DNA of 64,000 bases from positions 1-64,000 of the IMG/VR virus record IMGVR_UViG_3300037511_000125; one strand, given 5' to 3'. The stretch comes from a virus. Every line of letters begins with the position of its first letter. The stretch's first letter is position 1. The notes beneath the pieces are model-generated. The model was not told the origin of the DNA. It searched no databases and saw only the letters and a list, made by a program, of their open reading frames with translations. This document shows positions 5,446 to 49,614 of this stretch, piece after piece. Position numbers and translations under genes: made by a program.

Positions 5446-6860
5446 TAGATGTTGTGCGGCGCGGGTTCGTCAGTCTCGGGATCGGGCGCGGGTGGCTTGT
5501 AGTTGCGCAGATCGTCGTAGTCAAGATTCAGCGGACTGACAAACAACTTCTTCGATTCGTTCGCGTTATTCGCAAACCATTCGATGAGTCGCGCCTTGTT
5601 GTCTGGGTCCAGATCGGGTTTAAGCGAATCCAGCGCCGCCGTCAGGGCTTCGAACTTCACCTTCTCGACCTTCACCATCTCCGATTCAGGCTCTTCGAGC
5701 AGATTCGGCCACTCAGCAGAGAAGGCGTTTTTCCACTGGTAGAACGCCTCGGTGTACGACATGCCCCGGTATTCTTCGACATCCGCCTGGATGGTCTTGA
5801 AGAATTCCTCGCTCCACGCCAACCGCATTACGATCGGGTCGAAGAAGCCATACAGCGGCTGCACGCTCTTGCGTTCGTGGTTGATATAGCGAACCACTTC
5901 CTTGGCGTCTTCGGTGCCCTCGCCAAATCCTTCGGCATACGACTCGGAATTGAGCATCTTCGCCGGCTGCGGAACTGCCGCAGCGACGTTCTCAAGGATG
6001 TTCTTTCGGGCCGTCGTCAGCGCACCGTCTGCATTCAGCAGGTTCAACGTCTCGATCGCCTCTTCTGGCGTGATGTTGATAACGTTGTTTGTCTGCGCTT
6101 CCTTGACGACATTGCGCTTGATGCCCTGCAGAACCGCCATAGCGCGGTCAGCAATCGAACCAGCGGGCTTCATCTTAGCGACGATCACGCCGACCTTGCG
6201 GGCCACCATGTCATCCGCGACCATCGTCTGGACGAAGGATTTCAGCGGAAAGAGGGCGCGCTGATAGGCTGACCGGCCCGTGTAGCCGAATGCCGAGTTG
6301 CTGTACTCGATGTACAACGGCGCTTCGTTGAACAGGACCAGAGAGCGGGACGGGTGATACGACTGGCCCGCGGCCGTTACTGTCGTCGGCTTCTGGAAGT
6401 CCGGTGCGTTCGGGTCCTGGTTGAGAACAAGCGAACCTGCCGTATTCAACGGATCGAGCGAGTTGAAGTACAGATCGGCTTCAAGTTTCGCTAGGTCTTC
6501 CGGTTTGATGGGAGACTTCGTATCGACGCCCTTCGCCCCATAGACGATCGCAGCAGCACCGTAGATCTTGCTCAGGCGCCATGTGTTAGCAATCTTGTCG
6601 TCGACGGTGAGTTCATCCCACTTGCGCTCAAATGCTTCAGTAATGCGCTCTTCGGCCACAACGGGCACAGTGATCTTGCGCCGCTGGCTCATGGCGATCT
6701 TGATCGGCTGATCGACGATCTTCGAGCCTAGCGGGTGATACGCGTATATCTGTTTGCAGAGCTGGTAGCTCGGCTCGGCGCCGGGGACGATTTCATCCGC
6801 CATGAGCAGATCGGTCAAAGCCGACGACAGCCTTGAGCCTTCGATTGTGATTTCTGCCAT
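5445..6860 (-). CDS. portal protein (DUF1073-type)
   Basis: 471 aa, directly downstream of TerL. N-terminal ...AEPSYQLCKQIYAYHPLG... resembles DUF1073 portals (from memory). Confidence 0.8.
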   Translation of the reverse strand: MAEITIEGSRLSSALTDLLMADEIVPGAEPSYQLCKQIYAYHPLGSKIVDQPIKIAMSQRRKITVPVVAEERITEAFERKWDELTVDDKIANTWRLSKIYGAAAIVYGAKGVDTKSPIKPEDLAKLEADLYFNSLDPLNTAGSLVLNQDPNAPDFQKPTTVTAAGQSYHPSRSLVLFNEAPLYIEYSNSAFGYTGRSAYQRALFPLKSFVQTMVADDMVARKVGVIVAKMKPAGSIADRAMAVLQGIKRNVVKEAQTNNVINITPEEAIETLNLLNADGALTTARKNILENVAAAVPQPAKMLNSESYAEGFGEGTEDAKEVVRYINHERKSVQPLYGFFDPIVMRLAWSEEFFKTIQADVEEYRGMSYTEAFYQWKNAFSAEWPNLLEEPESEMVKVEKVKFEALTAALDSLKPDLDPDNKARLIEWFANNANESKKLFVSPLNLDYDDLRNYKPPAPDPETDEPAPHNI

Positions 6861-6872
6861 GGGGATGATGTG

Positions 6873-8150
6873 TTAGAAGCCTTCGGAATTCCCAAGGCCA
6901 ATCGCGACGCCGTAGGTGAAACAGTCGAGCAAGTCATCGGCGCGCTTGGCGGCGTCTTTGTCGCCAATGCGGAAGCCCAGGACTTGCGAGAGAAGGTGAT
7001 TGCGCGTCTGACCTTTGAAGTCGGACGTTTGATCGAAAGCGGCCTGACTGACCTTTACGAGTCCGCGATGCGCGTAGCCAGAAACGTTCATGGCTCGCTC
7101 GTCCTTACCCACGGATGTCAGCACGCCGTCGATAGGCTCAGCCGGCCAACCGCGCCGCGCGGCCTGTTGCAAAAGAATCGTTCCCGATCCCTTGTCTTCT
7201 ATGTACGTTCCGATTGCACCAAATCGCGCCTTCGTAAGCGCGGCGTAGTCCTGTAGTTGTCGGTAGACATTCGGCAGCCATGTTTCGAGCAGGCTCCCTT
7301 CGATCTGGATCAGCTCGTAGCCAAGGATGACTAGCGGGTTCTTTTGATGCTTGGCAACCGCCCAATAGATACAGCCTGTTCCGTCGTTATCCGACCCTGC
7401 CTTGATCGCAGTGTCGATCGTGCAGTAGACCCCATCAACATGCTGCGGCAACGGAACCGGCTTGCCATCATCAAGCAACTTGTCGAGCGAGAAAAACGCA
7501 ACGCCCGACCAATCGACAAACTCGGCCTCAAATTCCTGCTGCCAGACGAGCGGATGGTTGATTTCCTTTTCGCGGGCCAACTCATCAGCCGGCACATAAG
7601 GATTTGCGCTCGTCGGCGCGTGGTGTTGCTTAAACCCTAGCTTTGGCTCATTACAGACCGACCAGAAGAAGTTCTCTTCGTCGATCCCGTGCGGCGTGGA
7701 AAATACCCATGCGCCGCCTCGACGTGTTAGCAGGGTAGGCTTGATAGCCCGTTCCCATATCTGCCGCATCTGGCCATTCTTAGCGAATGCCGCTTCGTCC
7801 AGTAGAACGATGTCGTATTCGCGCCCCCGTCCAGCCAACGGGTTATCGTTGGTATGCCAGAAGTCGACGAGACCGCCCGTGGTCGTGCGGATCTCGCCAT
7901 CGTTCTTGCTGGACCGCCGCTTGATCGGCGAGAGGATTTCCAGAATCTCGTCGAACGGCTCGAGCAACTGTTTGTGCTCTGGCGTGAAAATGCCGATCTT
8001 CTTTGCTTTTGCAGCGCCATTTGACGCAATGGACGTCATCAGTTTGGTCTTGCCAAACCGGCGCCCGCATCGGACTGCGTTGAAGCGGTCTCGATTGCGA
8101 TAGATCTCCGCCTGCCCGCTATGCAACGTTGGCAGGAAGATATCGGTCAT
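6873..8150 (-). CDS. terL: terminase large subunit
   Basis: Walker A CGRRFGKTK, Walker B IVLLDEAAF, and a C-terminal RNaseH-like nuclease region with acidic residues. Confidence 0.9.
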   Translation of the reverse strand: MTDIFLPTLHSGQAEIYRNRDRFNAVRCGRRFGKTKLMTSIASNGAAKAKKIGIFTPEHKQLLEPFDEILEILSPIKRRSSKNDGEIRTTTGGLVDFWHTNDNPLAGRGREYDIVLLDEAAFAKNGQMRQIWERAIKPTLLTRRGGAWVFSTPHGIDEENFFWSVCNEPKLGFKQHHAPTSANPYVPADELAREKEINHPLVWQQEFEAEFVDWSGVAFFSLDKLLDDGKPVPLPQHVDGVYCTIDTAIKAGSDNDGTGCIYWAVAKHQKNPLVILGYELIQIEGSLLETWLPNVYRQLQDYAALTKARFGAIGTYIEDKGSGTILLQQAARRGWPAEPIDGVLTSVGKDERAMNVSGYAHRGLVKVSQAAFDQTSDFKGQTRNHLLSQVLGFRIGDKDAAKRADDLLDCFTYGVAIGLGNSEGF

Positions 8151-10462: not shown

Positions 10463-11650
10463 TCAAGCGGCCCACGAAACCCAGCTAGCCGACTCAACCT
10501 TTCTCGGCTCATCAACGTTCACCGGCATGCTGAATGTGATGCCCTGCGTCGGGTGCGTCAGCCAAAGAGCTTGGCGCGGCGGCTCATAGCCGAAGTTATT
10601 CGAGTACGCGTACTCGTCGTATCCCTTCAGCGAGCCGTTCACGATCAGGCGTTGCAACTGGATCAATTGGTGCCAATGCCCGAGCAGCATAGTGTCGTAG
10701 CTCGCGCCGATCTGGGTCTGTCTGCTGCGCTTCTTATGGTCGCCGCGGATGATCGGGCCTAGTGCGCCAATCATGCCATCGCCACCGCGGAACTGGTCAC
10801 CGTGAGTGAGCAGGTAGCGGTGATCGTAAATCTTGTACAGCGCGTCCGGGCCGTTCGGGATCAGGAACGAGACGCGCTTGTCGTCTTCGAACCGCTTGGC
10901 GAGGAAGCAGTAAAGCAGCCAGTCGAATGACGTGTAGTTCCGGCCCTTGGCGCGGATCTTATGGGTGTTACGCCCATGATTGCCGGTCACGCACGGCACG
11001 AACACGCGCCCAAACCGATCAGCCAGGGTATTGATACACCACGTCAGCGCGCCGAACAGATCGAGCACGACGGCCATGATTTCATGCTCGTCGGTCGCCA
11101 TGAGTTCTTCATGGATGCCGCCTGAAACCATATCGCCGCCAAGGGCGAACACTATGCCCGGATACTCCGGGTTCACCATGTGGTTGTTCAGGAGGTCAAT
11201 AGCGACCTCGACCATCCGGCGAATGCGCTTGTTGGCAATCGCCATGTCGTATTCGTTCACGCCGCCAATCTGCGACGAGTCGACGACTTCGCCCCAATGA
11301 AGATCCGACGCGAACAGGGTAGGGACGCCGGGCGACTTCTTCGACGGTCGGGCCGATACCAGCCATTTAGGCGGCTCAGCATGGGCCTCAGCTAACTTCA
11401 GGATGCGGCGCTTTACGAATTCCTCGTCGAGCGCTTCACGCTTGCTTGCGGCCAACTGATTGCGGAGCGTGCGCAGTTCGCTTTCCAGCTCATCAACGCG
11501 CGAGACTGGTTCGGGAATGGGCGCGTCATCGTATCGACTCGGCACGCCGTTTAATCGGCCGCGAAGAGTCGATTCCGCCATACCAAGGGCGCGCGCTGCA
11601 CCGCGTACGCTGCCGTGCTGCGCTACGGCTTTCTTCAAGTCGTCAGTCAC
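10463..11650 (-). CDS. HTH plus calcineurin-like metallophosphoesterase
   Basis: N-terminal HTH (GSVRGAARALGMAESTLRGRL). Phosphoesterase motifs DLHWG, GGDMV, GNHG, GHWH. Confidence 0.75.
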   Translation of the reverse strand: MTDDLKKAVAQHGSVRGAARALGMAESTLRGRLNGVPSRYDDAPIPEPVSRVDELESELRTLRNQLAASKREALDEEFVKRRILKLAEAHAEPPKWLVSARPSKKSPGVPTLFASDLHWGEVVDSSQIGGVNEYDMAIANKRIRRMVEVAIDLLNNHMVNPEYPGIVFALGGDMVSGGIHEELMATDEHEIMAVVLDLFGALTWCINTLADRFGRVFVPCVTGNHGRNTHKIRAKGRNYTSFDWLLYCFLAKRFEDDKRVSFLIPNGPDALYKIYDHRYLLTHGDQFRGGDGMIGALGPIIRGDHKKRSRQTQIGASYDTMLLGHWHQLIQLQRLIVNGSLKGYDEYAYSNNFGYEPPRQALWLTHPTQGITFSMPVNVDEPRKVESASWVSWAA

Positions 11651-11723
11651 GGGCGCCCTTTAGTCATAAATGAATAGAATTCTGTCTTTATGTGCCAGAT
11701 ATGGATAAAACTCTGACACTTCG

Positions 11724-11782
11724 AATCTTCTCAAAATCTCCTCACCGAATGAGAAGATTATGAGGAGATTATGAGGAGATTA
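11724..11782. repeat. five copies of a 10-mer TGAG(A/G)AGATT: two inverted, then three tandem at 11-bp phase
   Basis: AATCTTCTCA at 11724-33 and AATCTCCTCA at 11735-44. TGAGAAGATTA, TGAGGAGATTA and TGAGGAGATTA at 11750-82. An AT-rich block lies at 11660-11720. Confidence 0.8.
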
Positions 11783-12004
11783 CGAGTTCAGCAGCGGTCG
11801 AAACTGCCCGCACCACTGGTCCGGCGCAGTGACCGGAAACGTGCTGACCTGCATCTGTTCTTGCATGTCGTATGTCACGGTCGGCGGATTGAGGCGACAG
11901 AACCAGACTACGCTGTCGTCGCCTTCGAACATCCACCCGCAGCGACATGCCTTGCAAGTCTCTGTTGGCTCCGCAATGACCGGAATTACTTTCTTGCGTG
12001 CCAT
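11780..12004 (-). CDS. hypothetical small Cys-containing protein
   Basis: 74-aa ORF with plausible composition, co-oriented with its neighbours. Confidence 0.5.
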   Translation of the reverse strand: MARKKVIPVIAEPTETCKACRCGWMFEGDDSVVWFCRLNPPTVTYDMQEQMQVSTFPVTAPDQWCGQFRPLLNS

Positions 12005-12519
12005 TGCGAGCGCTCAAATAAAATAGCCCACCGAAGCGGGCAAAGCCTGAAGGGGAGTACAGGCGAGGAGACAGGGTGAGGCTACTTTTGCGCGCTCGCG
12101 TAACCCGTAGGGGCCAATCGGCCGGCGCAGCGCTAATTTCACCTTCGTGGCGGGCGACTGGCCGGGATTCGTCCCTCCCGTTTAAGTCCCAGGCCTGCTA
12201 CGCACAGGGTACCAATCGCCCATCATGAAGGCCCAAGTCTTTGCTTGGGCGGTACTTCGGTACGCTTCCCAGCGTTCCATTCGAGAGCGGCCGTGAATCC
12301 ACAGCCCGAACCCTCAAGCCCTCTAAGGGGAACCTCGTTGTCCGACATCGCGGAACAATCACCCGAAACACCCTGTTTCGAGCATTAAATCCGAGATGTC
12401 GGAAATAACTTACGTTTTTGCCGTTTTTGCTGCGGCCTGACTGAGATATCAGTCGCAGCCCACGACACGCCAATCGCACCAGTGGTTGAACTGGTCGCAA
12501 TACCAGCATCGCATCCCGA
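12005..12519. ncRNA. candidate structured noncoding region (strand unresolved)
   Basis: About 515 nt with only Arg-rich shadow ORFs. Hand-folded helices: 12341-49/12395-403 (9 bp) enclosing 12364-70/12374-80 (7 bp), 12232-37/12244-49, and GTAC-TTCG-GTAC at 12252-63. Confidence 0.3.
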
Positions 12520-23409: not shown

Positions 23410-23852
23410 GCGGCTCTCGCATAGCCCATAGAGGCAATCTGTTCGCGGACCATCTGCGCCATAACGGCTTTCATTTCTTCCGGGATCTCGACTTCGGGCT
23501 TGGTGAGCCAGCCGCGAATCTGCGACTTGCGCATCGCGCGAAACTGATCAATGGCAGCGTTCGAGCAGATGTTTTGAAGAAGCTCTTCCTGTTCGAGGGA
23601 AAGCTTGGCAAGGCCCATCTTTACCTTGGCAAGCTGGGCTCGGTTCTTGAACCCCAGGTATGCAGCGATTTCACCTTCCTGCAGTTTGCGAATGCGTTTG
23701 TCGAGACAAAGGCAAACCGCATCGCTGTAGTCCTTGCAGGACGCGATAAGGGCGTTGTCCAGATCGCGCGGCTTGGGAATCGTCGTCAGCACGGGCAGGG
23801 CGTCCTGCACGAGCCGATAGAGATAAGTAATTGAGTCCGCTTGATGTTCCAT
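23406..23852 (-). CDS. early regulatory protein (CII/CP76-like, by position)
   Basis: First large gene after the cro-like gene. I start it at ATG 23852 (MEHQADSITYLYRLV...). The family call is weak. Confidence 0.4.
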   Translation of the reverse strand: MEHQADSITYLYRLVQDALPVLTTIPKPRDLDNALIASCKDYSDAVCLCLDKRIRKLQEGEIAAYLGFKNRAQLAKVKMGLAKLSLEQEELLQNICSNAAIDQFRAMRKSQIRGWLTKPEVEIPEEMKAVMAQMVREQIASMGYARAA

Positions 23853-23895
23853 TTGATTCTTCTTGATGTTCCAGTAGGACAAGGGGCCAAATGAA

Positions 23896-23911
23896 GGCTC
23901 CCGAAGGAGCC
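23896..23911 (-). terminator. hairpin between the cro-like gene and the next gene (tR1-like attenuator?)
   Basis: Minus strand GGCUCC-UUCG-GGAGCC followed by UUCAUUU. Confidence 0.3.
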
Positions 23912-23935
23912 AACGTTAAGAAACCTATGAACCGC

Positions 23936-24175
23936 TTAAACCGCTACAACTTTCGATTCAAGCAACTGATCCCTGGATACGCGCCCTTCAGTGAGGCTTT
24001 CGATTGCTGCAGCGTATTGCGTCTCTCCAGTCCACTCGGTTCGGGGTAACCGACCCCTCGCGATCCATTTGCGGACAGCCTGGTAGGTGACCGGCTTCTG
24101 GATCCGTTCATTGAGTTTCTTGGTGAAGGCGGTAAGTCCGCCAGCATCGCCAATTGCTATTTCGATCAGGTTCAT
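23936..24175 (-). CDS. Cro-like / YdaS-like HTH regulator
   Basis: MNLIEIAIGDAGGLTAFTKKLNERIQKPVTYQAVRKWIARGRLP is HTH-like. Divergent from the CI-like gene. Confidence 0.6.
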   Translation of the reverse strand: MNLIEIAIGDAGGLTAFTKKLNERIQKPVTYQAVRKWIARGRLPRTEWTGETQYAAAIESLTEGRVSRDQLLESKVVAV

Positions 24176-24206
24176 GGTCTCCATTCTAGAACCAAAAGTT
24201 ACTGTC

Positions 24207-24884
24207 ATGCAAGAACTGATTGTTCCTGTCGCTCCGGCGACAATGGAACCTATGGTTACTAGTGATGAAATCCGCGATTTTTCAGAGCGATTGAACTCCG
24301 CGCTCGATGCGAAGAACGATGAGCGCGTGGGTCGGCAGGCGCGCCTCGGGAAGGCGTTTGGCTTGAGTCAGAAGGCGGCGCGCAAGTGGCTTGTGGGTGA
24401 GTCCTTCCCCGAGGTGGCGAGAATGATCCAGCTCGCCAAGATGCTCGACGTCCGATTCGAGTGGCTGGCTACGGGACGCGGCCCGCGTTATTTGAATGAA
24501 GAATTAGGGTCAATCAAGCCGGATGAGTCGGTTGATCGGCCTCTTGAAAAGATCCGGCAAGTCATTGACGGCCAGCACCGTGCGTCGCGAATCAGTGATG
24601 AGGACGCGACTTTGCTTCGCGCTGCGGTGGAGTCTGTTCAGACCAATATGGCACCTACGATCCGCGCCGCCGTTTTATTAATGTTGGGTAGCCAAACGCC
24701 CGCAGAGAACCAAAAAGAGAACGCTAATCAGGTAATTGAAGGGCATGTAATTAGTTCACACTCATCGTCACGCGAGGTAAAAGGTTCTGCCAAAGACTTC
24801 GCCGGGAGCAAGATAGCCGACATTCGATCGGAGGCCGTTCCAGACGGTGAGAAGCATCATGACCAACGAAAGAAGGGAACCTGA
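24207..24884 (+). CDS. CI-like repressor (HTH, no S24 peptidase domain)
   Basis: HTH ...LGKAFGLSQKAARKWLVGESFPEVARMIQLAKMLDVRFEWLATG... No Ala-Gly or Ser-Lys autocleavage motifs are seen in the C-terminal half. Confidence 0.65.
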   Translation: MQELIVPVAPATMEPMVTSDEIRDFSERLNSALDAKNDERVGRQARLGKAFGLSQKAARKWLVGESFPEVARMIQLAKMLDVRFEWLATGRGPRYLNEELGSIKPDESVDRPLEKIRQVIDGQHRASRISDEDATLLRAAVESVQTNMAPTIRAAVLLMLGSQTPAENQKENANQVIEGHVISSHSSSREVKGSAKDFAGSKIADIRSEAVPDGEKHHDQRKKGT

Positions 24885-25101
24885 GGTCGTGAGCCTAGAT
24901 GCCTATAGAGCCATCCGCGATCACAGGTCAGCGCGATACGATCAGGAGGTAGTTACAGATGTACATTTCTCGATAACGCGTTCTGGCGCGATCCTGCCAA
25001 GTGCAGTGAAGGTGGTTGATCTGCATGTTCTGGCGGTGCTCGCGTGGAGCTTGGAGGTGTCCTCAAACATGCTCGACAATTACCTGTCTCAGACCGACTA
25101 A
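24859..25101 (+). CDS. hypothetical protein
   Basis: ATG 24859 (MTNERREPEVVSLDAYR...) overlaps the end of the repressor gene. Confidence 0.45.
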   Translation: MTNERREPEVVSLDAYRAIRDHRSARYDQEVVTDVHFSITRSGAILPSAVKVVDLHVLAVLAWSLEVSSNMLDNYLSQTD

Positions 25102-25124
25102 GACCCACACAACGAGAACCATAC

Positions 25125-25149
25125 AAGCCCGCCGCGCGCGGGCTTTTTT
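25125..25149 (+). terminator. rho-independent terminator of the repressor transcript
   Basis: AAGCCCGC-cgcgc-GCGGGCTT followed by TTTT. Confidence 0.75.
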
Positions 25150-25191
25150 GTGTCCCCCATCAATCTGTCCCCATTTGTTACAAAAATGGTC

Positions 25192-25231
25192 ACTTTCGGT
25201 ACTTGCGCGACGTAACCGAAAGTTCTATGAT
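25192..25231 (+). promoter_or_regulatory. operator-like palindrome overlapping a putative promoter
   Basis: ACTTTCGGTAC-N9-GTAACCGAAAGT at 25192-25223, then TATGAT at 25226-31. A possible -35 TTGCGC lies 17 nt upstream. Confidence 0.4.
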
Positions 25232-25315
25232 TCATCCATACCCGCTGCACACGAATCATCAGCACCGCACCACAAACCGCAGCAGCACCGCGGATCAATC
25301 ACGAAGGGGACCGAA

Positions 25316-25639
25316 ATGACCGAAGTAACGAAGGCCTGCATCGCGGGCGCCGTAATGGCCGCAGCTCTCTTTGGCGTCGCCAAGCACGCAAACGCCGAGG
25401 AATACATCCTGGGCACTGCTCAGTGCCACGTATGGACCGATGCGAATCACGGCGAGTTCGATCGCATGCTCGAGCTGGGCTACACGATCGGATTCGCGGA
25501 CTCGTACTCGCTGAATGCGGATACACGCACGTACAAGTATGGCGAAGTCGTTGCAGCCATCACGCGTGAATGCTACCGCGATCCGAAGCAGATGATCGCC
25601 GCCGCTGCAGTTAAGGCGATGAAGACGTTCGAGAAGTGA
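25316..25639 (+). CDS. small secreted/periplasmic protein (immunity-region moron)
   Basis: SD GAAGGGGA. Signal peptide MTEVTKACIAGAVMAAALFGVAKHANA. The mature part has two Cys. Confidence 0.6.
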   Translation: MTEVTKACIAGAVMAAALFGVAKHANAEEYILGTAQCHVWTDANHGEFDRMLELGYTIGFADSYSLNADTRTYKYGEVVAAITRECYRDPKQMIAAAAVKAMKTFEK

Positions 25640-25640
25640 A

Positions 25641-25745
25641 ATGAGCTACGCCGACTACGTCGCCGACTGCACCGCCCGAGGCAAGCGTGCGATTTCGTAC
25701 ACGGCCTGGGCGAATCTGCAGCCTCCGACTGAATGGAGTTTTTGA
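25641..25745 (+). CDS. tiny ORF (34 aa)
   Basis: MSYADYVADCTARGKRAISYTAWANLQPPTEWSF. Its stop overlaps the next ATG (TGATG). Confidence 0.3.
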   Translation: MSYADYVADCTARGKRAISYTAWANLQPPTEWSF

Positions 25746-25918
25746 TGCGCGAATGGTTAGTCAGCATATACGCCGGTTATCACCACACCAATCCGACGTG
25801 GAAGTTCTCGGTAAGCGCAGATAGCAAGGCGATGGCGATATCGATCGGCATGTGGATGTTCGAACACTCAGGTGAGTATATCGACGAGTTCGGTCACGTC
25901 GAGGCGGACAAGATTTAA
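25745..25918 (+). CDS. hypothetical small protein
   Basis: MREWLVSIYAGYHHTNPTWKF..., coupled to the previous ORF. Confidence 0.4.
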   Translation: MREWLVSIYAGYHHTNPTWKFSVSADSKAMAISIGMWMFEHSGEYIDEFGHVEADKI

Positions 25919-26641
25919 CTGTTCGTAGCAGCTTGGCCTTGAGCCAAGCTAGTGCGAATAGCACGAAGTACCGCAGTAGAACCAGATACAGGCTGCATGG
26001 CGTCAGCCTGGTAGGGCAAGTGGATCTTTAAGAATACTGGACAGCGCAGGCCGTAAGGCCAGAACACCGGAGATATTCCCTGCGCCGTATGTGCATGTGG
26101 CCGCACACGAGATAGCCGAGAGGCAGTGCCATTTCCCGAAAGGGACACCGAACACAGCAGCCGCTGGTGTAGAAAGCGGAGCGCCCGCGAACGTCGCGTG
26201 ACCTTGTGAGTCATTCGACCAAGCGGAAGGCGTGCGGGGATGGGAAAACAGACCTGAACCGCGCGCAAAGCAGTACCAGCGCACGATAAGCGCATTCGGA
26301 AGAGTGCTCTTATCGGGCCTGCTGTACTGACGAAGGACCGCTGAACTCCCTGCACTAGATGAGTATCCGCGAAACCGATCCGCCATAAGTCCTACGGGCA
26401 GGGGCAGTAGGTTAGCTGAAGTCCAGTGCATAGCAACAGCGTTCCTTCGTGAGTATTGCATACCCCCAGCGAGAGGGATGATCCGATGCATTTGCCTGCC
26501 AACGCATCGGGGACCAACTGACAGGCTACACCGGGGAGCTTCGGGCGGCTGGAGAACCGGGGATGGTGATAGCTAAACCGCCCACCTATTCACATCCGCA
26601 TTGCTATATGCAGTGCGTTTCGGACTACTACGGAGCATAAG
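25919..26641 (+). ncRNA. candidate large structured ncRNA (about 720 nt, family unknown)
   Basis: No plus-strand ORF longer than about 25 codons. Many nested helices, and GNRA tetraloops that read correctly only on the plus strand (details in findings). Confidence 0.5.
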
Positions 26642-27067
26642 ATGAAATTCGATGCCAACGGCAGGCATTTCTTGGGTGATTGGGGAGTGATCGAGGTTAA
26701 TGCATTGGGTGACACGCTCCAGGCGTTGAAGGGCGCATTGCTGGTCGCGTTCGGCGAGCACCGGGACGCCACGCACTACAGGGTGTTTGACGACGCGGAG
26801 ACGGGCGGCAACATGCTTGCCCTGTACTGGACAAACAGCAGTGAGGCGATTCCGCTGCCCTTCAAGATCGACGCCAACACCGCAGTCGATTTCGTCGCGC
26901 GCTGGCTGGAAGCAAACGGACGCTGGCCGGATGAGCGACCCGACACCGATGGTGACGTGCATGTCGGGTTCCGCATTCAGTCTGGTTGGTGCGACCAAAA
27001 GAATGATCACTGCGACTTCTACACAACCGCTCTGATCATTCCCGAGTGGACTGTCTACGGCAAGTAA
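26642..27067 (+). CDS. hypothetical protein
   Basis: 141-aa ORF with good composition. Confidence 0.6.
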   Translation: MKFDANGRHFLGDWGVIEVNALGDTLQALKGALLVAFGEHRDATHYRVFDDAETGGNMLALYWTNSSEAIPLPFKIDANTAVDFVARWLEANGRWPDERPDTDGDVHVGFRIQSGWCDQKNDHCDFYTTALIIPEWTVYGK

Positions 27068-27091
27068 GCCGCCGCGCCATGCGCGAAGGAG

Positions 27092-27478
27092 ATGAAGATG
27101 CATCGCGAACGACTTGAGCAGATGGTCACCATGCTGCGGGGTTTGCCGCCGGAAGGTGAGGTTGGTTTTGATCTGTCCAGTTGGCATTGCGGAACGACAG
27201 CGTGCGCCGTAGGGCATGCCTGTCTCAATCCAAAGTTTCAAGAGCAGGGGCTAAAACTTGTTCCGAGCAGGAGTGATGGGTTCATACCCTCCTACGCGGG
27301 GAATACGGGTTGGGAGGCCGTGAGGTCTTTCTTTGGTCTGGGAGCGGAAGAAGACGATTACCTGTTTTTTGCCTGGGAGTATCCGAAAGGATCGCAGACC
27401 ACCGCAGCCGAGGTTGCCGACCGGATTGAGGATTTTCTCGCAGGCAATCCCGATCCGGACGAAGTTCTGTCGCTCTAA
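27092..27478 (+). CDS. hypothetical protein
   Basis: 128-aa ORF. Confidence 0.6.
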   Translation: MKMHRERLEQMVTMLRGLPPEGEVGFDLSSWHCGTTACAVGHACLNPKFQEQGLKLVPSRSDGFIPSYAGNTGWEAVRSFFGLGAEEDDYLFFAWEYPKGSQTTAAEVADRIEDFLAGNPDPDEVLSL

Positions 27479-35901: not shown

Positions 35902-36996
35902 ATGGAAATCGTCAAGACATTGAAGTTGCGTATCAAGGACAAGCACGCCACGGCGTTGCTTGCGATGGCTCGCGACGTCAATACTGTCTGGAATTTCTGC
36001 AACGAAACGCAATACCGCAGCCTGAGACGATACTGCAATCGACCCAAAACATGGTTGTCAGGCTTTGATCTCGAGAAGCTTGTTTCAGGGTTTGTGAAGT
36101 GCGAGAGTGTTTCAATCGGCTCATCCACAGCGCAAGAGACTTGCCAACAGTTTGCAAGGCGTCTAAGGCAGTTCAAGCGCCAGAAACTTCGGTGGCGCGT
36201 AAGTGATCGTCAGTCGCCCAGATATTCGCTTGGGTGGGTGCCGTTCAAGGCAACTGCCATCAAGTTCAAAAATGGGCAGTTGCACCTCAATGGAAAGAGC
36301 ATCGGCCTTTGGGATTCATATGGCCTTTCCAAGTATGAGCTTCGCGCCGGCAGCTTCAACGAAGACTCGCGCGGTCGCTGGTACGTGAACATCGCGGTCA
36401 AGGAAAAGGCCGCAGAGAAGCGTGTACCGGATGGCGCGACTTCGATCGGAATCGACCTCGGCCTTAAGACGATGGCGACATACAGCGACGGCACGAAGTT
36501 CGAAATGCCGCGCTGGTATCGACTCTCCGAACAGACGCTCGGAATCGCCCAGCGGGCGAACAAGAAACGCCGCGTTAAGGCTATCCACGCGAAGATCGCG
36601 AATCAGCGCAAGGACGCCATCCACAAGGAAACGTCCGCACTGGTGAAGAAGCATGCAGCAATCTTCGTAGGGAACGTGAACGCGAAAGCGCTGGCGAGAA
36701 CGAGCATGGCGAAATCCGTGCACGACGCCGCATGGACGATGTTCCGGACACAACTCAAGTTCAAGGCCATCAGGCATTGCGTGGTGTTCGAGGAAGTCAA
36801 CGAAGCGTTTTCATCCCAAACCTGTTCGAGTTGCGGAGCTTTGCCCGACTCGCGGCCGAGAGGTATCGCAGGACTTGGAATAAGAGAGTGGGCGTGCAGC
36901 GACTGTGGAGCGGTCCATGACCGGGATACAAACGCCGCACGAAACATTCTCCGCTTGGGGCATCAAGCGCTAGCGGTAGGAGCCTCGCACGTCTAG
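35902..36996 (+). CDS. tnpB: TnpB (RuvC-like RNA-guided nuclease, OrfB_IS605)
   Basis: ...IGIDLGLK... (RuvC-I), ...FEEVNEAFSSQTCSSCGALP...WACSDCGAVHDRDTNAARNI (zinc finger plus RuvC-III). Confidence 0.85.
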   Translation: MEIVKTLKLRIKDKHATALLAMARDVNTVWNFCNETQYRSLRRYCNRPKTWLSGFDLEKLVSGFVKCESVSIGSSTAQETCQQFARRLRQFKRQKLRWRVSDRQSPRYSLGWVPFKATAIKFKNGQLHLNGKSIGLWDSYGLSKYELRAGSFNEDSRGRWYVNIAVKEKAAEKRVPDGATSIGIDLGLKTMATYSDGTKFEMPRWYRLSEQTLGIAQRANKKRRVKAIHAKIANQRKDAIHKETSALVKKHAAIFVGNVNAKALARTSMAKSVHDAAWTMFRTQLKFKAIRHCVVFEEVNEAFSSQTCSSCGALPDSRPRGIAGLGIREWACSDCGAVHDRDTNAARNILRLGHQALAVGASHV

Positions 36997-41005: not shown

Positions 41006-41089
41006 AACAAGTGATTCACGATGCAGGTTCACGTCCGATCAAGGGGGGCAATAAGTTATAATTACGGGATACTAAATTAGGATGTGAAA

Positions 41090-41593
41090 ATGCCGCGCGC
41101 CGCACCGAATGACGGATTAACGACAAAGCAAAGATATTTCAAAAAGATGAGCGATGCAGCGCCAACAATTCTCTGCGCATGCGGGTGTGGCGGGTCGCTT
41201 AAGTCAGTCGATGCCTATGGCCGCCCCGCAACGTTCATCAATGGCCACAACGCGCGAAAGTACGAGGGCGAAGAATCGACCAAGTGGGCAGCCCAGAAGC
41301 GATACCGCACGAACAATCCCGATAAGCATCGGGACTACAAGCGTGAATATTATCGCGCTCGGAAACTTAAGGCGATGGAACTTCTGGGTAACAAATGTGA
41401 GTTGTGCGGAATCCCGTATAACGGGACTAACGCCCCCATTTTCGAATTTCATCATAGAAACCCGCACGAAAAAGAAGCTGGCGTTACCAGAATGCTAACC
41501 AATAAGGCTTGGGAGCAGGTCGTTCTGGAAATGACGAAATGCATTCTTGTGTGCGCCAATTGCCACAATCAACATCACGGAGGTGAGTGGTGA
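41090..41593 (+). CDS. HNH endonuclease
   Basis: ...CELCGIPY...FEFHHRNPHEK...LVCANCHNQHH. The upstream region is AT-rich. Confidence 0.8.
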   Translation: MPRAAPNDGLTTKQRYFKKMSDAAPTILCACGCGGSLKSVDAYGRPATFINGHNARKYEGEESTKWAAQKRYRTNNPDKHRDYKREYYRARKLKAMELLGNKCELCGIPYNGTNAPIFEFHHRNPHEKEAGVTRMLTNKAWEQVVLEMTKCILVCANCHNQHHGGEW

Positions 41594-42774
41594 AGCAGGT
41601 TATCAAGGAAGATGGGGCATCGCCCATCAAAATCTGGACCGATGACGTTGAGCAGAGCGCATTGGCCCAATTGAAGAGCATTGCCGGTCTGCCGTTTGTA
41701 TCGAAGCATGGCGTCGCAGTTATGCCTGACGTCCATGCCGGAATTGGGTCAACCGTTGGAAGCGTCGTGGCCACGGAAAAGGCAATCGTGCCTTCGATGG
41801 TCGGCGTGGACATCGGGTGCGGGATGAACGCCGTTCGCCTGTCGCTGAAGGCGTCCGAACTCCCCGACGATCTGAAGACGATCCGCCATCAGATTGAGCG
41901 AGACGTTCCGCTTGGAACGGGTGGGGCGCATCGCGACGACCGACAACCCGACATCCCTGTAGATCTGGCGGCGCGCTACACGCATATCGTCGATCAGCAC
42001 GCCGGGATTCTCAATAAGAACATGAACCGCCAGCTCGGCACATTGGGTAGCGGCAATCACTTCATCGAACTGTGCATCGACGAGGCGCAGGACGTTTGGG
42101 TGATGCTTCACAGTGGTTCGCGCGGCGTTGGCAATCTGATTGGCCGATACTTCATCGAGAAGGCGAAAAAGCGGATGGAGCAATACTTCATCAGCCTGCC
42201 GGATGGCGACTTGGCCTACTTCCCCGAAGACACCGACGATTTCCGCGATTACGTGAAGGCGGTGAACTGGGCGCAGGACTATGCGCTCGAAAACCGCCGC
42301 GTGATGATGGAAGCGGTGATCGCGGCGCTACGCCGACATATCCCCGTCGAATTCACAATTACTCAAGAGGCGATCAACTGCCATCACAACTACGTCGAGC
42401 GTGAAAACCACTTCGGCAAAAATCTCTGGGTGACGCGCAAGGGTGCAATTCGCGCTCGTGAAGGCGACCTTGGCATCATCCCGGGTTCGATGGGTCAACG
42501 CTCATACATCGTGCGCGGCAAGGGCAATCTGGAGTCGTACTGCTCATGTTCGCACGGGGCCGGTCGAAAGATGAGCCGTGCCGAGGCACGTCGTCGATTC
42601 CAGTTGTCCGATCTTGTCGCGCAGACTGAAGGCGTTGAGTGCCGCAAGGATGATGCGGTGCTGGACGAGATCCCCGGCGCGTACAAGCAGATTGACGAGG
42701 TGATGGCGAATCAGACGGACTTGGTTGAGGTCGTTCACGTCCTAAAGCAGTGCCTCTGCGTCAAGGGAGCCTGA
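41587..42774 (+). CDS. rtcB: RtcB RNA ligase (3'-phosphate/5'-OH)
   Basis: ...VGVDIGCGM..., ...LGSGNHFIELC..., ...HSGSRGVGN..., ...NCHHNY..., ...SCSHGAGR... are canonical RtcB metal/GMP motifs. Confidence 0.9.
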   Translation: MVKQVIKEDGASPIKIWTDDVEQSALAQLKSIAGLPFVSKHGVAVMPDVHAGIGSTVGSVVATEKAIVPSMVGVDIGCGMNAVRLSLKASELPDDLKTIRHQIERDVPLGTGGAHRDDRQPDIPVDLAARYTHIVDQHAGILNKNMNRQLGTLGSGNHFIELCIDEAQDVWVMLHSGSRGVGNLIGRYFIEKAKKRMEQYFISLPDGDLAYFPEDTDDFRDYVKAVNWAQDYALENRRVMMEAVIAALRRHIPVEFTITQEAINCHHNYVERENHFGKNLWVTRKGAIRAREGDLGIIPGSMGQRSYIVRGKGNLESYCSCSHGAGRKMSRAEARRRFQLSDLVAQTEGVECRKDDAVLDEIPGAYKQIDEVMANQTDLVEVVHVLKQCLCVKGA

Positions 42775-47940: not shown

Positions 47941-48527
47941 AGATGCTCCGGGTCGTGATGGATAACTTCATCGGGGCTGAACTGATAGCCCTCGACGGCG
48001 TACTTCGTGAACAGCCACACAGGAAGGGGCAACCTGTGTAATCCCTCGTCCTTTCCGATATGCGCGCCGGCGCCGAGCAACAGACCGTTCACGGTCATAT
48101 CGTCGACGAAGGTGTATGGATCAAACGGGTCGGCCGACAGGAATGAATCCCAATCGAACGCCTGCGCGTGCGGACCCCACAGACCACGCTTGCAGTCTTC
48201 AGCGAAGCGCGGCCAGTCCCATGCAGTCGCGAAGCAGCGTTCTACGGGGTGGTGGTGGGCTTGGAGGGGTGCGCCGAGTTCTTCGGCCGTCATATTGGTG
48301 ACGAAGCACCGGCCACCCTCGCGCTCGATCAGCGCTTTACGGGTCCGCTTGAATAGCGAAGTCGTGGTGCGCTCTTCATGGCCAGGGACGAAGTAATCTG
48401 CCGTGATCGTGTCTTTGAGTTCGTGTGTTTGTTCGACGGACATAGATTTGGATACCCGTGCAAGCCCCTCCTGCATGCACGAATGACAGGCGTGCTCAAG
48501 CGGCACGCCATGGGAGCAACGGGGCAT
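47937..48527 (-). CDS. hypothetical protein (weak HNH-like His/Cys motifs)
   Basis: I start it at ATG 48527, because the longer track ORF would run through a terminator hairpin. Contains ...GGRCFVTN...LQAHHHP... Confidence 0.4.
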   Translation of the reverse strand: MPRCSHGVPLEHACHSCMQEGLARVSKSMSVEQTHELKDTITADYFVPGHEERTTTSLFKRTRKALIEREGGRCFVTNMTAEELGAPLQAHHHPVERCFATAWDWPRFAEDCKRGLWGPHAQAFDWDSFLSADPFDPYTFVDDMTVNGLLLGAGAHIGKDEGLHRLPLPVWLFTKYAVEGYQFSPDEVIHHDPEHL

Positions 48528-48535
48528 GATTTGGG

Positions 48536-48563
48536 CAAAAAGAAAGCCGCGCGAGGGCGGCTT
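48536..48563 (-). terminator. rho-independent terminator downstream of the lysozyme gene
   Basis: Minus strand AAGCCGC-ccucgc-GCGGCUU followed by UCUUUUU. Confidence 0.6.
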
Positions 48564-48719
48564 GTGGGGGGGGGAGGGCTTATACCCTCGAAACGAATCG
48601 CGGGGTATAAGCGAAATCGCTTGTAAGGGATGAAAGGCACGCGTAGAGTGGACTTGCGCGTTATTGAGCAAGTGGCGCGCACCCAAGGCTTCGCTGGCGT
48701 GTGCTAGCGGGGCCGTTTT

Positions 48720-49172
48720 TTATGTCGGCATCACGCCGTCTTCCATTGCGCGGGCCAGTCGCTTTGCGCGGTCACCGACCTGTTTGGCCCAGATCGAATT
48801 GAGCATCGCCGCGGCGGCCACCGCATACGAACCGCGTTGCATCGCGCCGAGAGCGTTCTTGAACGTCAGCAGCTTCCCGACCCCCAGGTTAAACGCCATA
48901 TTCGCAACGACGCGTTGGCGAACCTCATCGAGATCACGCCACCATGGCAGATTGCGATCGAGGTTTGCGAACACGTCCGCGAGGTCATCGGCGAGCAACT
49001 GGTCGACTTGTGCGTCGGTGAGCGGATAGGCCCAGCTCGTCGGTAGAGGCTTGGCATTGAGGTTATGACCAACCGCAACAGTGTCCCGAGGTGGCGTCGC
49101 CGTGTCTTTGTACGGGAAGCGGCGCACGCCTTCATCGCGGCGCAGCTCTGCCTCAAGAAGCGCAATGTCCAT
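48720..49172 (-). CDS. endolysin, T4-lysozyme-like (GH24)
   Basis: MDIALLEAELRRDEGVRRFPYKDTATPPRDTVAVGHNL has the Glu, Asp, Thr catalytic spacing. Confidence 0.85.
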   Translation of the reverse strand: MDIALLEAELRRDEGVRRFPYKDTATPPRDTVAVGHNLNAKPLPTSWAYPLTDAQVDQLLADDLADVFANLDRNLPWWRDLDEVRQRVVANMAFNLGVGKLLTFKNALGAMQRGSYAVAAAAMLNSIWAKQVGDRAKRLARAMEDGVMPT

Positions 49173-49317
49173 CGCGACCTCACGAATGAAACTTCAAACA
49201 AACGGGGGAGTTTGTATAACTTTTGATACGCAGTAGTCGTTTCTGTGCGAAACGCGCTGGAAATAGCGACTTTTGTGTATCGAGTGTGTGTTTCTGTGTA
49301 TTAGCAGATTTGCTAGG

Positions 49318-49614
49318 TTACTTGTCGGCCTTGCCATCAAGTTTTTCGTCGATGCGCTCGAGCTTCTTGAAGACCGCATTGATCGATTCGCTGAACCGGT
49401 CAATCGCCTTCTCTAAGGCGCTCGAAGTGACGAACGTTTCCGCGCAGTGCAACTTGAACTCCGCGAGGTCATCAGCGCGCTTCTGTAGAGCCAGGTCGTG
49501 CGCTTCCAACTTCTTGTCCAGTTGCGAAATAGATCGCTTCAGCATGCCGCCGAAAACAGCACTAACCAGCGCAACGCCTGCGCATCCGATCTCAACAGCG
49601 GCGGTGTAATCCAT
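49318..49614 (-). CDS. N-terminally anchored coiled-coil protein (i-spanin or holin-like)
   Basis: MDYTAAVEIGCAGVALVSAVFGGML is a TM helix, followed by a long coiled coil. Sits upstream of the lysozyme gene. Confidence 0.5.
   Translation of the reverse strand: MDYTAAVEIGCAGVALVSAVFGGMLKRSISQLDKKLEAHDLALQKRADDLAEFKLHCAETFVTSSALEKAIDRFSESINAVFKKLERIDEKLDGKADK

Follow-up and report, generated by a model that had tools for sequence, protein, structure and literature searches.

We describe here a large structured RNA encoded in the early region of a temperate phage. The DNA analysed is a stretch of 64,000 nucleotides of viral origin (positions 1 to 64,000 of IMG/VR record IMGVR_UViG_3300037511_000125). 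The whole of this stretch is referred to as the window, and coordinates are those of the window unless another locus is named. Between the stop codon of one small gene at 25918 and the ATG of the next at 26642 there is a segment of 723 nt, which an earlier note made from the sequence alone had singled out as a candidate large ornate non-coding RNA next to the immunity region. The proposal has held up on covariation, on the lack of a coding signal and of any Rfam match, on homologues in unrelated gene contexts and on G-U pairs and GNRA loops of the plus strand. The segment is non-coding from 25919 to about 26595 on the plus strand, and its folded architecture (P1, P2, a core of ~190 nt with Ha, Hc, He, the pseudoknot stems S1/S2 and P5, then P6 and long 3′ rods) covaries among its relatives. 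The RNA is conserved independently of its flanking genes, which are mosaic, and it moves between phages. We consider it very probable that this is a genuine functional structured RNA of the plus strand. It belongs to a previously uncatalogued and rare RNA family of temperate Paraburkholderia-type phages, for which we use the working name CI-side large phage RNA.

In the core (26044-26226) MAFFT aligns about 200 nt of all the members unambiguously; gaps were placed by hand and padded with N, and pairs were then counted. Over ten sequences 97.3% of the cells were paired, compensatory changes were found in 18 of the 34 pairs and the covariation score was 0.416. An eight-sequence version gave 97.4% of paired cells and both-sided changes in 16/34 pairs. 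When the registers were slid by 1–3 columns the paired cells fell to 28–46%, with 1–5 compensatory pairs. Two members that were found after the structure had been fixed (L095 and L096) fit it as well. The family can be defined by Ha around the loop CCGUAAGGCCAGARCAYCGGAGAUAUYY, Hc, the GNRA-type hairpin He, the pseudoknot S1/S2 with its linkers GAACAnAGCAn and UAGWA, and P5, and the window carries every one of these elements, which the ten sequences of the alignment have in common.

The 28-nt internal loop enclosed by Ha is identical, or differs at 1–4 positions, in all eleven family loci, and in the window its motif occurs a single time, with neither a second copy nor an antisense target. The inner stem of Hc reads GUGC/GCAC, GUCG/CGAC or GUCC/GGAC depending on the member. 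One position of S1 is A-U, G-C or U-A and another is C-G or G-C, and S2 occurs in five sequence versions. The outer stem of P5 runs through the series C-G / U-G / U-A and C-G / U-G / A-U, with inner helices that differ by member. The loop of He is GAAA or GCAA in eight of ten members and has 7 nt in the remaining two, while the third pair of Hd is A.C in five members. Two of the helices drawn by hand in the earlier note, Ha and He, are real elements of the core, the latter with its GNRA loop kept. A third, the hairpin GGCC-GUAA-GGCC (26049-60), is contradicted, because its 5′ half belongs to Ha and varies there, with Gs that change uncompensated, while its 3′ half (26057-60) never varies. The nearly invariant internal loop and the H-type pseudoknot, the key features of the core, had been overlooked.

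Outside the core, P1/P1a was compared among the window, L013, L010 and L004 and has 95.6% of its cells paired, with compensatory changes in 9 of 17 pairs (0–2 in slid controls) and one G-U pair kept in the four sequences. The stem of P2 becomes CGGGUUG/CAGCCCG in L004, L005 and L013 and CAGGCG/CGCCUG in L008, always with the same loop. In an excerpt alignment of seven members P6 has 96.4% of cells paired and compensatory changes in 7/8 pairs, and its loop is also conserved. The consensus fold of P7b (window, L004 and L005) contains many one-sided G-C/G-U and U-A/U-G changes, and the rod is also present in L096, where the sequence of its outer stem is another one. In the interior of this rod GAUGAGUAU (26358-66) lies opposite GCUGAAGUCC (26415-24), both kept in L004, L005 and L096, an arrangement (AGUA opposite GAA) that looks like a loop-E or sarcin-ricin (S-turn) motif. 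P9 is CCGAUGC/GCAUCGG in the window and CCGAUAAGC/GCUUAUCGG in L096, and P8 varies so little that it adds weak support. The helices that had been predicted at 25930-37/25943-50, 25989-95/26004-10 and 26483-89/26504-10 are borne out by these comparisons. The three-tier stack P7a, also predicted, does exist in the sequence and in the folds, but it is an insert specific to the window: L096 has none and L004/L005 carry an unrelated module of ~150 nt in its place, so that it has no comparative support.

Peripheral modules are thus swapped between members, whose length ranges from ~350 to ~800 nt. In two of them the 5′ module carries CCGGUUCGACUCCGG on the minus strand of the contig, in L014 at ~120 to 60 nt before the core and in L096 at ~950-915. 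This 4-bp stem and its UUCGACU loop have exactly the form of the T-arm/T-loop of transfer RNA (tRNA), and they are absent from the 5′ module of the window. At the other end, the 3′ tail is conserved block by block with L096 only, up to ~26593. Beyond it L096 has a different 7-bp hairpin at the place of the one at 26599-26617, which is not followed by a U-tract and was not called by the terminator scan. Taking the leader from 25919 and the 3′ tail shared with L096, the RNA spans about 25919-26595 (~680 nt), essentially the extent given to it before.

Some points weigh against taking the segment as a structured RNA and limit what can be used as evidence. Only about ten related sequences underlie the comparison and the alignments were hand-curated to the proposed structure, so that the statistics of the shuffled core (82.9% of cells paired, 9.0 compensatory pairs, a score of 0.156) are not to be read as probabilities. 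The dense pairing that had first attracted attention does stand out against dinucleotide shuffles (z of -3.5 for the plus strand and -4.1 for the minus strand, 20 shuffles), but against 176 other 723-nt pieces of the same 64 kb, regressed on GC content, z is only -1.35, and 14 of the 176 are as stable. As the segment is no outlier with respect to the rest of the window, the many helices that can be drawn in it are no evidence in themselves, and we have rejected folding energy as an argument for a structured RNA. It is covariation, not stability, that speaks for the reality of the structure. The lowest GC-corrected folding energies of the 64 kb, below that of the segment, belong to 723-nt pieces within 11192-12275 and 48014-49458.

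Known families gave no lead. Rfam 15 had no match in the whole window at the gathering score and none in 25500-27100 at E<=10, nor was there any match at the gathering score in the eleven family loci, in agreement with the lack of a known-family signature seen before. No match came from BLASTN searches with the segment in GenBank phages or PLSDB plasmids either. Since these DNA searches were without match, the translation of an antisense open reading frame (ORF) of 162 aa was used as a query against a collection of 5.8 billion proteins, where such a spurious ORF could be expected to have been annotated. This way we found two metagenome contigs (L004 and L005) that share 25969-26470 with the window at 75–88% identity in BLAST-aligned blocks, with unrelated genes on both sides and two internal stretches exchanged for other sequence. 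A scan with GTAAGGNNNNAACACCGGAGATAT (26053-76), a motif taken from the best-conserved block, added the viral contigs L006, L007 and L008 and four further metagenome loci (L010, L011, L013 and L014). It also retrieved L009 (NZ_WOEZ01000185), a prophage locus of Paraburkholderia elongata 5N whose sequence is identical to that of L008. A second translated-frame search retrieved two Logan contigs (L095 and L096), in which the supposedly invariant motif is off at 1–2 bases, and a third one with the sense frame retrieved nothing. The total is eleven distinct family loci including the window, the ten others coming from viral contigs and from JGI and Logan metagenome contigs, and P. elongata is the only named host among them. 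The motifs GGTGTAGAAAGCGGAGCG, GACGAAGGACCGCTGAAC and TGGTGTAGAAANNNNAGCGCCCG proved too specific as scan patterns. The collection scans accept exact patterns only, and therefore both the size of the family and its host range are underestimated. An exact look-up of the window proteins gave only an identical fragment (L003), a search with the upstream 61-aa gene in viral contigs gave nothing, and an nhmmer profile search of 80 viral loci centred on RtcB genes found no further copies of the RNA. Homologues of the downstream 141-aa gene (L001 and L002) are found without the RNA, which is thus not linked to that gene. Full-text literature searches for the conserved sequences and for structured RNAs of Burkholderia prophages found no description of the family. 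The features of the RNA and of its surroundings are collected in Table 1.

Table 1. Features of the RNA and of its genetic neighbourhood (positions in the window unless a locus is named).
Feature	Position	Strand	Remarks
CI-type repressor-like gene	24087-24884	+	Upstream of the RNA; Pfam Phage_CI_repr and PHROG transcriptional repressor families
Strong intrinsic-terminator-like hairpin and U-run	25125-25145	+	Between the repressor module and the RNA-containing operon
Palindrome ACTTTCGGTA / AACCGAAAGT	25192-25237	+	Read in the sequence; overlaps a weak TTGCGC-17-TATGAT promoter-like site
P1/P1a leader stem-loop	25919-25961; 25919-27/25953-61 and 25930-37/25943-50	+	Begins at the first base after the upstream stop
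P2 hairpin	25989-26010	+	CAGGCUG-CAUGGCGU-CAGCCUG; read by eye across members
Helix Ha	26044-50/26079-85	+	Encloses the 28-nt internal loop; compensatory in 3 pairs
Internal loop, 28 nt	26051-78	+	CCGUAAGGCCAGAACACCGGAGAUAUUC; nearly invariant; inside Ha
Helix Hc	26086-88 and 26091-94 with 26103-09	+	98.6% of cells paired
Hd hairpin	26115-26124	+	GCC-GAGA-GGC, GNRA cap; weakest core element, 82% of cells paired
He hairpin	26134-26145	+	UCCC-GAAA-GGGA; 100% of cells paired, 3/4 pairs compensatory
H-type pseudoknot	26146-26179	+	Conserved linkers GAACAnAGCAn and UAGWA
Pseudoknot S1	CACC 26146-49 with GGUG 26166-69	+	100% paired
Pseudoknot S2	CCGCU 26161-65 with AGCGG 26175-79	+	100% paired, 4/5 pairs compensatory
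P5 long hairpin	26185-26226; outer stem 26185-88/26223-26	+	Outer stem 100% paired
P6 hairpin	26230-37/26259-66	+	Conserved loop GGGAAAACAGAC at 26242-53 (GGGAAnACAGAC)
P7a three-tier stack	26271-26329	+	GGAA cap; peripheral insert specific to the window; in minimum free energy and centroid folds
P7b long rod	26330-26450; ACGAAGGAcCGCUG 26330-43 with CAGCGuUCCUUCGU 26437-50	+	Consensus fold of window/L004/L005
P8 small hairpin	26463-26477	+	CCC-N-GAGA-GGG; conserved in window, L004, L014 and L096
P9 hairpin	26483-89/26504-10	+	Three compensatory pairs vs. L096
3′ tail domain	26526-26593	+	CUACACC...GGUGAUAG around a GCUUCGG element, then UAGCUAAACC, UAUUCA
Terminal 7-bp hairpin	26599-26617	+	Just 5′ of the next gene (ribosome-binding site, ATG)
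RtcB genes	window 41587-42774 (+); L008 1400-2593; L023 6001-7176

Other explanations of the segment would do without a plus-strand RNA. We give practically no credence to a protein gene on the minus strand or a decayed pseudogene of one. The long ORFs of the segment are indeed both antisense, as had been noticed before (25915-26355, 146 aa, and 26003-26491, 162 aa), and gene callers have annotated them as hypothetical proteins in four metagenome contigs. Nevertheless, they lack frame-specific GC bias (the three-phase spread is 0.06–0.10 in the segment vs. 0.2–0.3 in the flanking genes), the open frames differ between contigs, and the substitutions are compensatory across helices and do not follow third codon positions. 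Moreover, the homologues differ from the window by 1–2-nt indels throughout, also within the core, and by large non-triplet swaps of modules, and these small indels rule out a conserved reading frame. On the plus strand there are only short ORFs of 25–36 codons; the strand had rightly been called free of long ORFs, but the longest have 32–36 codons and not ~25. We looked for codon-like substitutions, for a lack of covariation and for a match to a mundane Rfam family, and found none of them.

An element acting at the level of DNA (a replication origin, a packaging or recombination site, a structure in single-stranded DNA) or an RNA transcribed from the minus strand is very improbable for other reasons. 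It is true that covariation of base pairs by itself cannot separate RNA from single-stranded DNA, that the folded minus strand is no less stable than the plus strand, and that the five A.C cells of the weak Hd, together with two in P1, would be G-U on the minus strand. However, these are far outnumbered by the G-U cells of the plus strand, of which the core has 9 and P1 and P6 have 6 each, while the 3′ rod adds at least 8 pairs. The GNRA loops are correct only when read on the plus strand, which is the operon direction, as the earlier note had pointed out, and the same applies to the T-loop-like CCGGUUCGACUCCGG of L014 and L096. All the neighbouring genes are also on the plus strand, and a scan of 23800-25400 detected no iterons or repeat families, nor is there a second core motif in the window.

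The window is a temperate-phage region in which the CI-like gene is followed by the terminator hairpin, by small ORFs and then by the RNA, and further downstream, on the same strand, by small ORFs, RecT, YqaJ, a cytosine methylase, TnpB, an HNH protein, RtcB and an integrase. This place is kept in the family. In seven out of seven loci that could be judged, i.e., those with upstream sequence present (the window, L006, L010/L097, L011, L014, L095 and L096), the RNA is co-oriented with, and 0.25–2.6 kb downstream of, a helix-turn-helix and/or S24 CI-like gene, often with KilA-N, ANT or Rha genes in between. In L095 (1410-1500) a terminator is followed by a promoter-like TTGCAT-17-TACTAT located between inverted exact copies of the 12-mer TAGCAAACGCTA, and the RNA comes directly after. 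The 12-mer recurs at the start of a Cro/YdaS-like gene (L095 2333-2383), with four sites vs. 0.5 expected, and judging by the sequence these sites look like a shared operator, an analogue of oL/oR. In the window the palindrome at 25192-25237 is a candidate for an operator-controlled early promoter. The promoter scan made no call there and the half-site ACTTTCGGTA is not enriched window-wide, so that this assignment stays tentative.

No intrinsic terminator was detected at the 3′ end of the RNA in any member, the gene that follows may code for a 141-aa unknown protein, a pentapeptide-repeat protein, a GIY-YIG protein or others, and the next start codon is located ~270 to ~590 nt or more away from the core. 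The RNA itself is present in a single copy per locus or phage. The pentapeptide-repeat genes lie just downstream of the RNA in L007 (1030-1833, Pfam E = 2e-50 for the protein, with a 48-aa ORF in between) and in L010 (~7690-7971). Proteins of this kind are often DNA mimics, and the gene may be a cargo that counters defence or protects gyrase. Upstream of the RNA the window has two small ORFs, 25641-25745 (34 aa, ‘YAEYVA..C...WA.LQP’) and 25733-25918 (61 aa, ending in DKI). The longer one has a homologue in L013 and the shorter one has relatives in L004 and L013, but neither was seen in L006, L007, L008, L095 or L096, and they are thus not obligate partners. A TnpB gene (OrfB_IS605 with a Cas12f-like TNB domain) is located at 35902-36996 (+) within the prophage early operon, and an HNH-like ORF (41084-41593) abuts the RtcB gene of the window.

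One member has been interrupted. In L011 (5578-7000 of contig Ga0302220_10005548) the RNA gene is split by an insertion of ~915 nt: the leader, Ha and the invariant loop end at 5637, and the core resumes at Hc (6552) in a long form similar to that of L014. The insert consists of ~240 nt of non-coding sequence and a 231-aa ORF resembling GIY-YIG+NUMOD3 homing endonucleases, and part of it resembles the 3′ end of the short form of L007. The most conserved sequence of the RNA lies 10 nt 5′ of the insertion point, and at the junction Hc is mismatched twice.

Among known RNAs the first to be compared are GOLLD and ROOL, which we take to be Rfam RF01998 and RF03087. Both are large ornate prophage-associated RNAs (PMC5737381, PMC12286853). 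Their typical hosts are Lactobacillales, Actinobacteria or rumen bacteria, in whose prophages they have tRNA genes as neighbours, and cryo-electron microscopy has shown them to form homo-oligomeric cages. The RNA described here, known from sequence alone, is like them in having several hundred nt, many helices with GNRA loops, a conserved core with variable or exchangeable domains, and temperate phages or prophages as carriers. It differs in its host group (Burkholderiaceae), in the absence of nearby tRNA genes and in its fixed place in the repressor-proximal early operon, and there is no covariance-model match even at E<=10. The resemblance suggested in the earlier note is thus one of kind and not of membership. 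The candidates OLE, raiA and HEARO, or any other family of Rfam 15, were likewise discarded for want of a covariance-model match. Neither ARAGORN, which detected no tRNA or transfer-messenger RNA (tmRNA) in the window or in ten family loci, nor Rfam supports a tRNA, a tmRNA or a YrlA RNA, the T-loop-like hairpin of L014 and L096 being isolated, and no TROVE/Rsr gene was found among the ORFs scanned with Pfam, a scan that was not exhaustive; a YrlA RNA would be expected next to an rsr (Ro60) gene. A riboswitch or cis-regulatory leader, in which a conserved aptamer is coupled to an expression platform ahead of genes with a coherent function, was rejected as well, given that the downstream genes are unrelated, no terminator lies at the 3′ end and the spacing to the start codon varies.

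Group I introns can carry GIY-YIG homing endonuclease genes, and free-standing Seg-type endonucleases are known from the tRNA gene region of T4. The endonuclease-like ORF of L011, close to the most conserved sequence of the RNA, recalls the former, as does the pseudoknotted core, in which the 5′ strand of one stem abuts the 3′ strand of the other. Unlike in group I introns, no P4-P6 or P8 element separates the pseudoknot strands, and the window RNA interrupts no gene: the upstream ORF has its own stop, the downstream ORF has its own ribosome-binding site and ATG, and the flanks are unrelated between members. The boundaries of the L011 insertion (the 5′ exon ends in G and the insert in A) also go against group I rules, and the Intron_gpI model, by which the catalytic core P3-P9 can be recognised, had no match at E<=10 in the window segment or in L011 5400-7300, where Rfam gave only chance-level results. 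We have therefore rejected a group I intron. DicF, a 53-nt small RNA of the Qin prophage, is processed from the transcript of the immunity-region dicB operon and acts by base-pairing. Like DicF, the present RNA is non-coding, lies among small genes of an immunity-proximal operon, has no promoter or terminator of its own and would need RNase processing to be released. In contrast, it is more than ten times larger, has complex tertiary-structure motifs, and its conserved loop has no antisense target in the window.

As to what the RNA does, our best guess, held tentatively, is a folded RNA particle that is expressed early and acts in trans. It would be transcribed early within the repressor-proximal ‘leftward’ operon, from an operator-controlled promoter, would be trimmed out of the operon transcript, e.g., at the long P1 stem, and would then persist as a stable particle. 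The conserved core, with its internal loop and pseudoknot, would be the working surface that binds a partner of host or phage origin or acts on it as a catalyst, and the variable rods would be structural ornaments. We favour this reading because of the size, the ornate and exchangeable modules, the single copy and the absence of an expression platform; size and modularity resemble those of large ornate RNAs rather than those of compact regulatory leaders. On the other hand, no partner protein co-occurs consistently across the loci, the split by ~915 nt in L011 is not obviously tolerable for a single compact particle, and the place of the RNA just behind an early promoter, in an operon and without its own terminator, would fit a cis-acting element equally well. 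Such an element, a nascent RNA that modifies RNA polymerase or controls the expression or processing of the leftward operon, is the main rival, less probable but a real possibility. HK022 put, with ~70 nt and two stem-loops, is a processive antiterminator that consists of RNA only and acts in cis. It is found once behind each of pL and pR, and the map of lambda at the corresponding position reads pL-nutL-N. Our RNA is at the same place, just downstream of a putative repressor-controlled early promoter, and would be co-transcribed with the operon that it precedes. This is clearest in L095, where it would be the first element transcribed behind the promoter-like site flanked by two operator copies and the operator recurs next to the Cro/YdaS-like gene, while in the window a strong terminator and the candidate operator/promoter lie ~0.7 kb upstream. 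The operon continues to recombination genes and the integrase, and a processive antiterminator would be indifferent to the genes that follow, as their variety suggests. However, with 350–800 nt, a pseudoknot and exchangeable modules the RNA is ten times the size of put, and it is present once per phage and not once per early operon, so by size and copy number it is not a put-type RNA. Besides, most members have 0.2–0.9 kb of ORFs (usually one to three) between the presumed promoter and the RNA, the distance to the next start is variable, and no terminator, anti-terminator or hairpin sequestering the Shine-Dalgarno sequence is conserved at its 3′ end.

Some processing is needed in any case to obtain a discrete species from an operon-embedded RNA without its own promoter or terminator, and this brings in a ribozyme or self-processing RNA, whose pseudoknotted core would cleave or ligate, e.g., for self-excision, with products perhaps handled by the phage RtcB. 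The large, highly structured RNA and its nearly invariant pseudoknotted core would suit this idea, and each of the three RNA-bearing phages whose sequence extends far enough has a co-oriented RtcB RNA ligase gene 10–15 kb downstream. Yet we hold it to be improbable: there is no match to the Rfam ribozymes (group I and II introns, HDV-like, twister, hammerhead), RtcB is common in related viral contigs (145 matches), and the RNA was not present within 6 kb of any of 80 RtcB loci, so that the link may reflect shared ancestry and not function. A bolder reading, conceivable but in our opinion rather unlikely, is that the family represents a novel class of giant ornate RNAs of phages, whose core would work as a catalytic or self-assembling centre within minutes of prophage induction or of infection. 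As a decoy, a scaffold or a substrate the RNA might take part in an RtcB-linked conflict of RNA damage and repair, and its gene would be conserved enough to have become a homing site for a GIY-YIG endonuclease.

To our knowledge, large and intricately folded RNAs of bacteria and phages are few (RNase P, group I and II introns, tmRNA, OLE, GOLLD, ROOL and raiA), and each of the large folded RNAs so far known to us is a ribozyme, a ribonucleoprotein scaffold or an unexpected RNA-only assembly. The present family can be assigned to a definite place in the genomes of temperate Burkholderiaceae phages, their repressor-proximal early operon, and with its compact core, pseudoknotted and nearly invariant, it points to a specific molecular partner. 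The natural variants with swapped modules are ready-made structure-function experiments, and Paraburkholderia elongata 5N is a cultured lysogen that carries the RNA, all of which makes its function directly testable. The split by a homing-endonuclease cassette in L011 would be a rare invasion of an RNA gene that codes for neither tRNA nor ribosomal RNA. Should the RNA prove to be an antiterminator without a protein part, it would solve the problem of HK022 put in a second and unrelated way, and if it acts in trans, it would be a new RNA of phage-host interaction.

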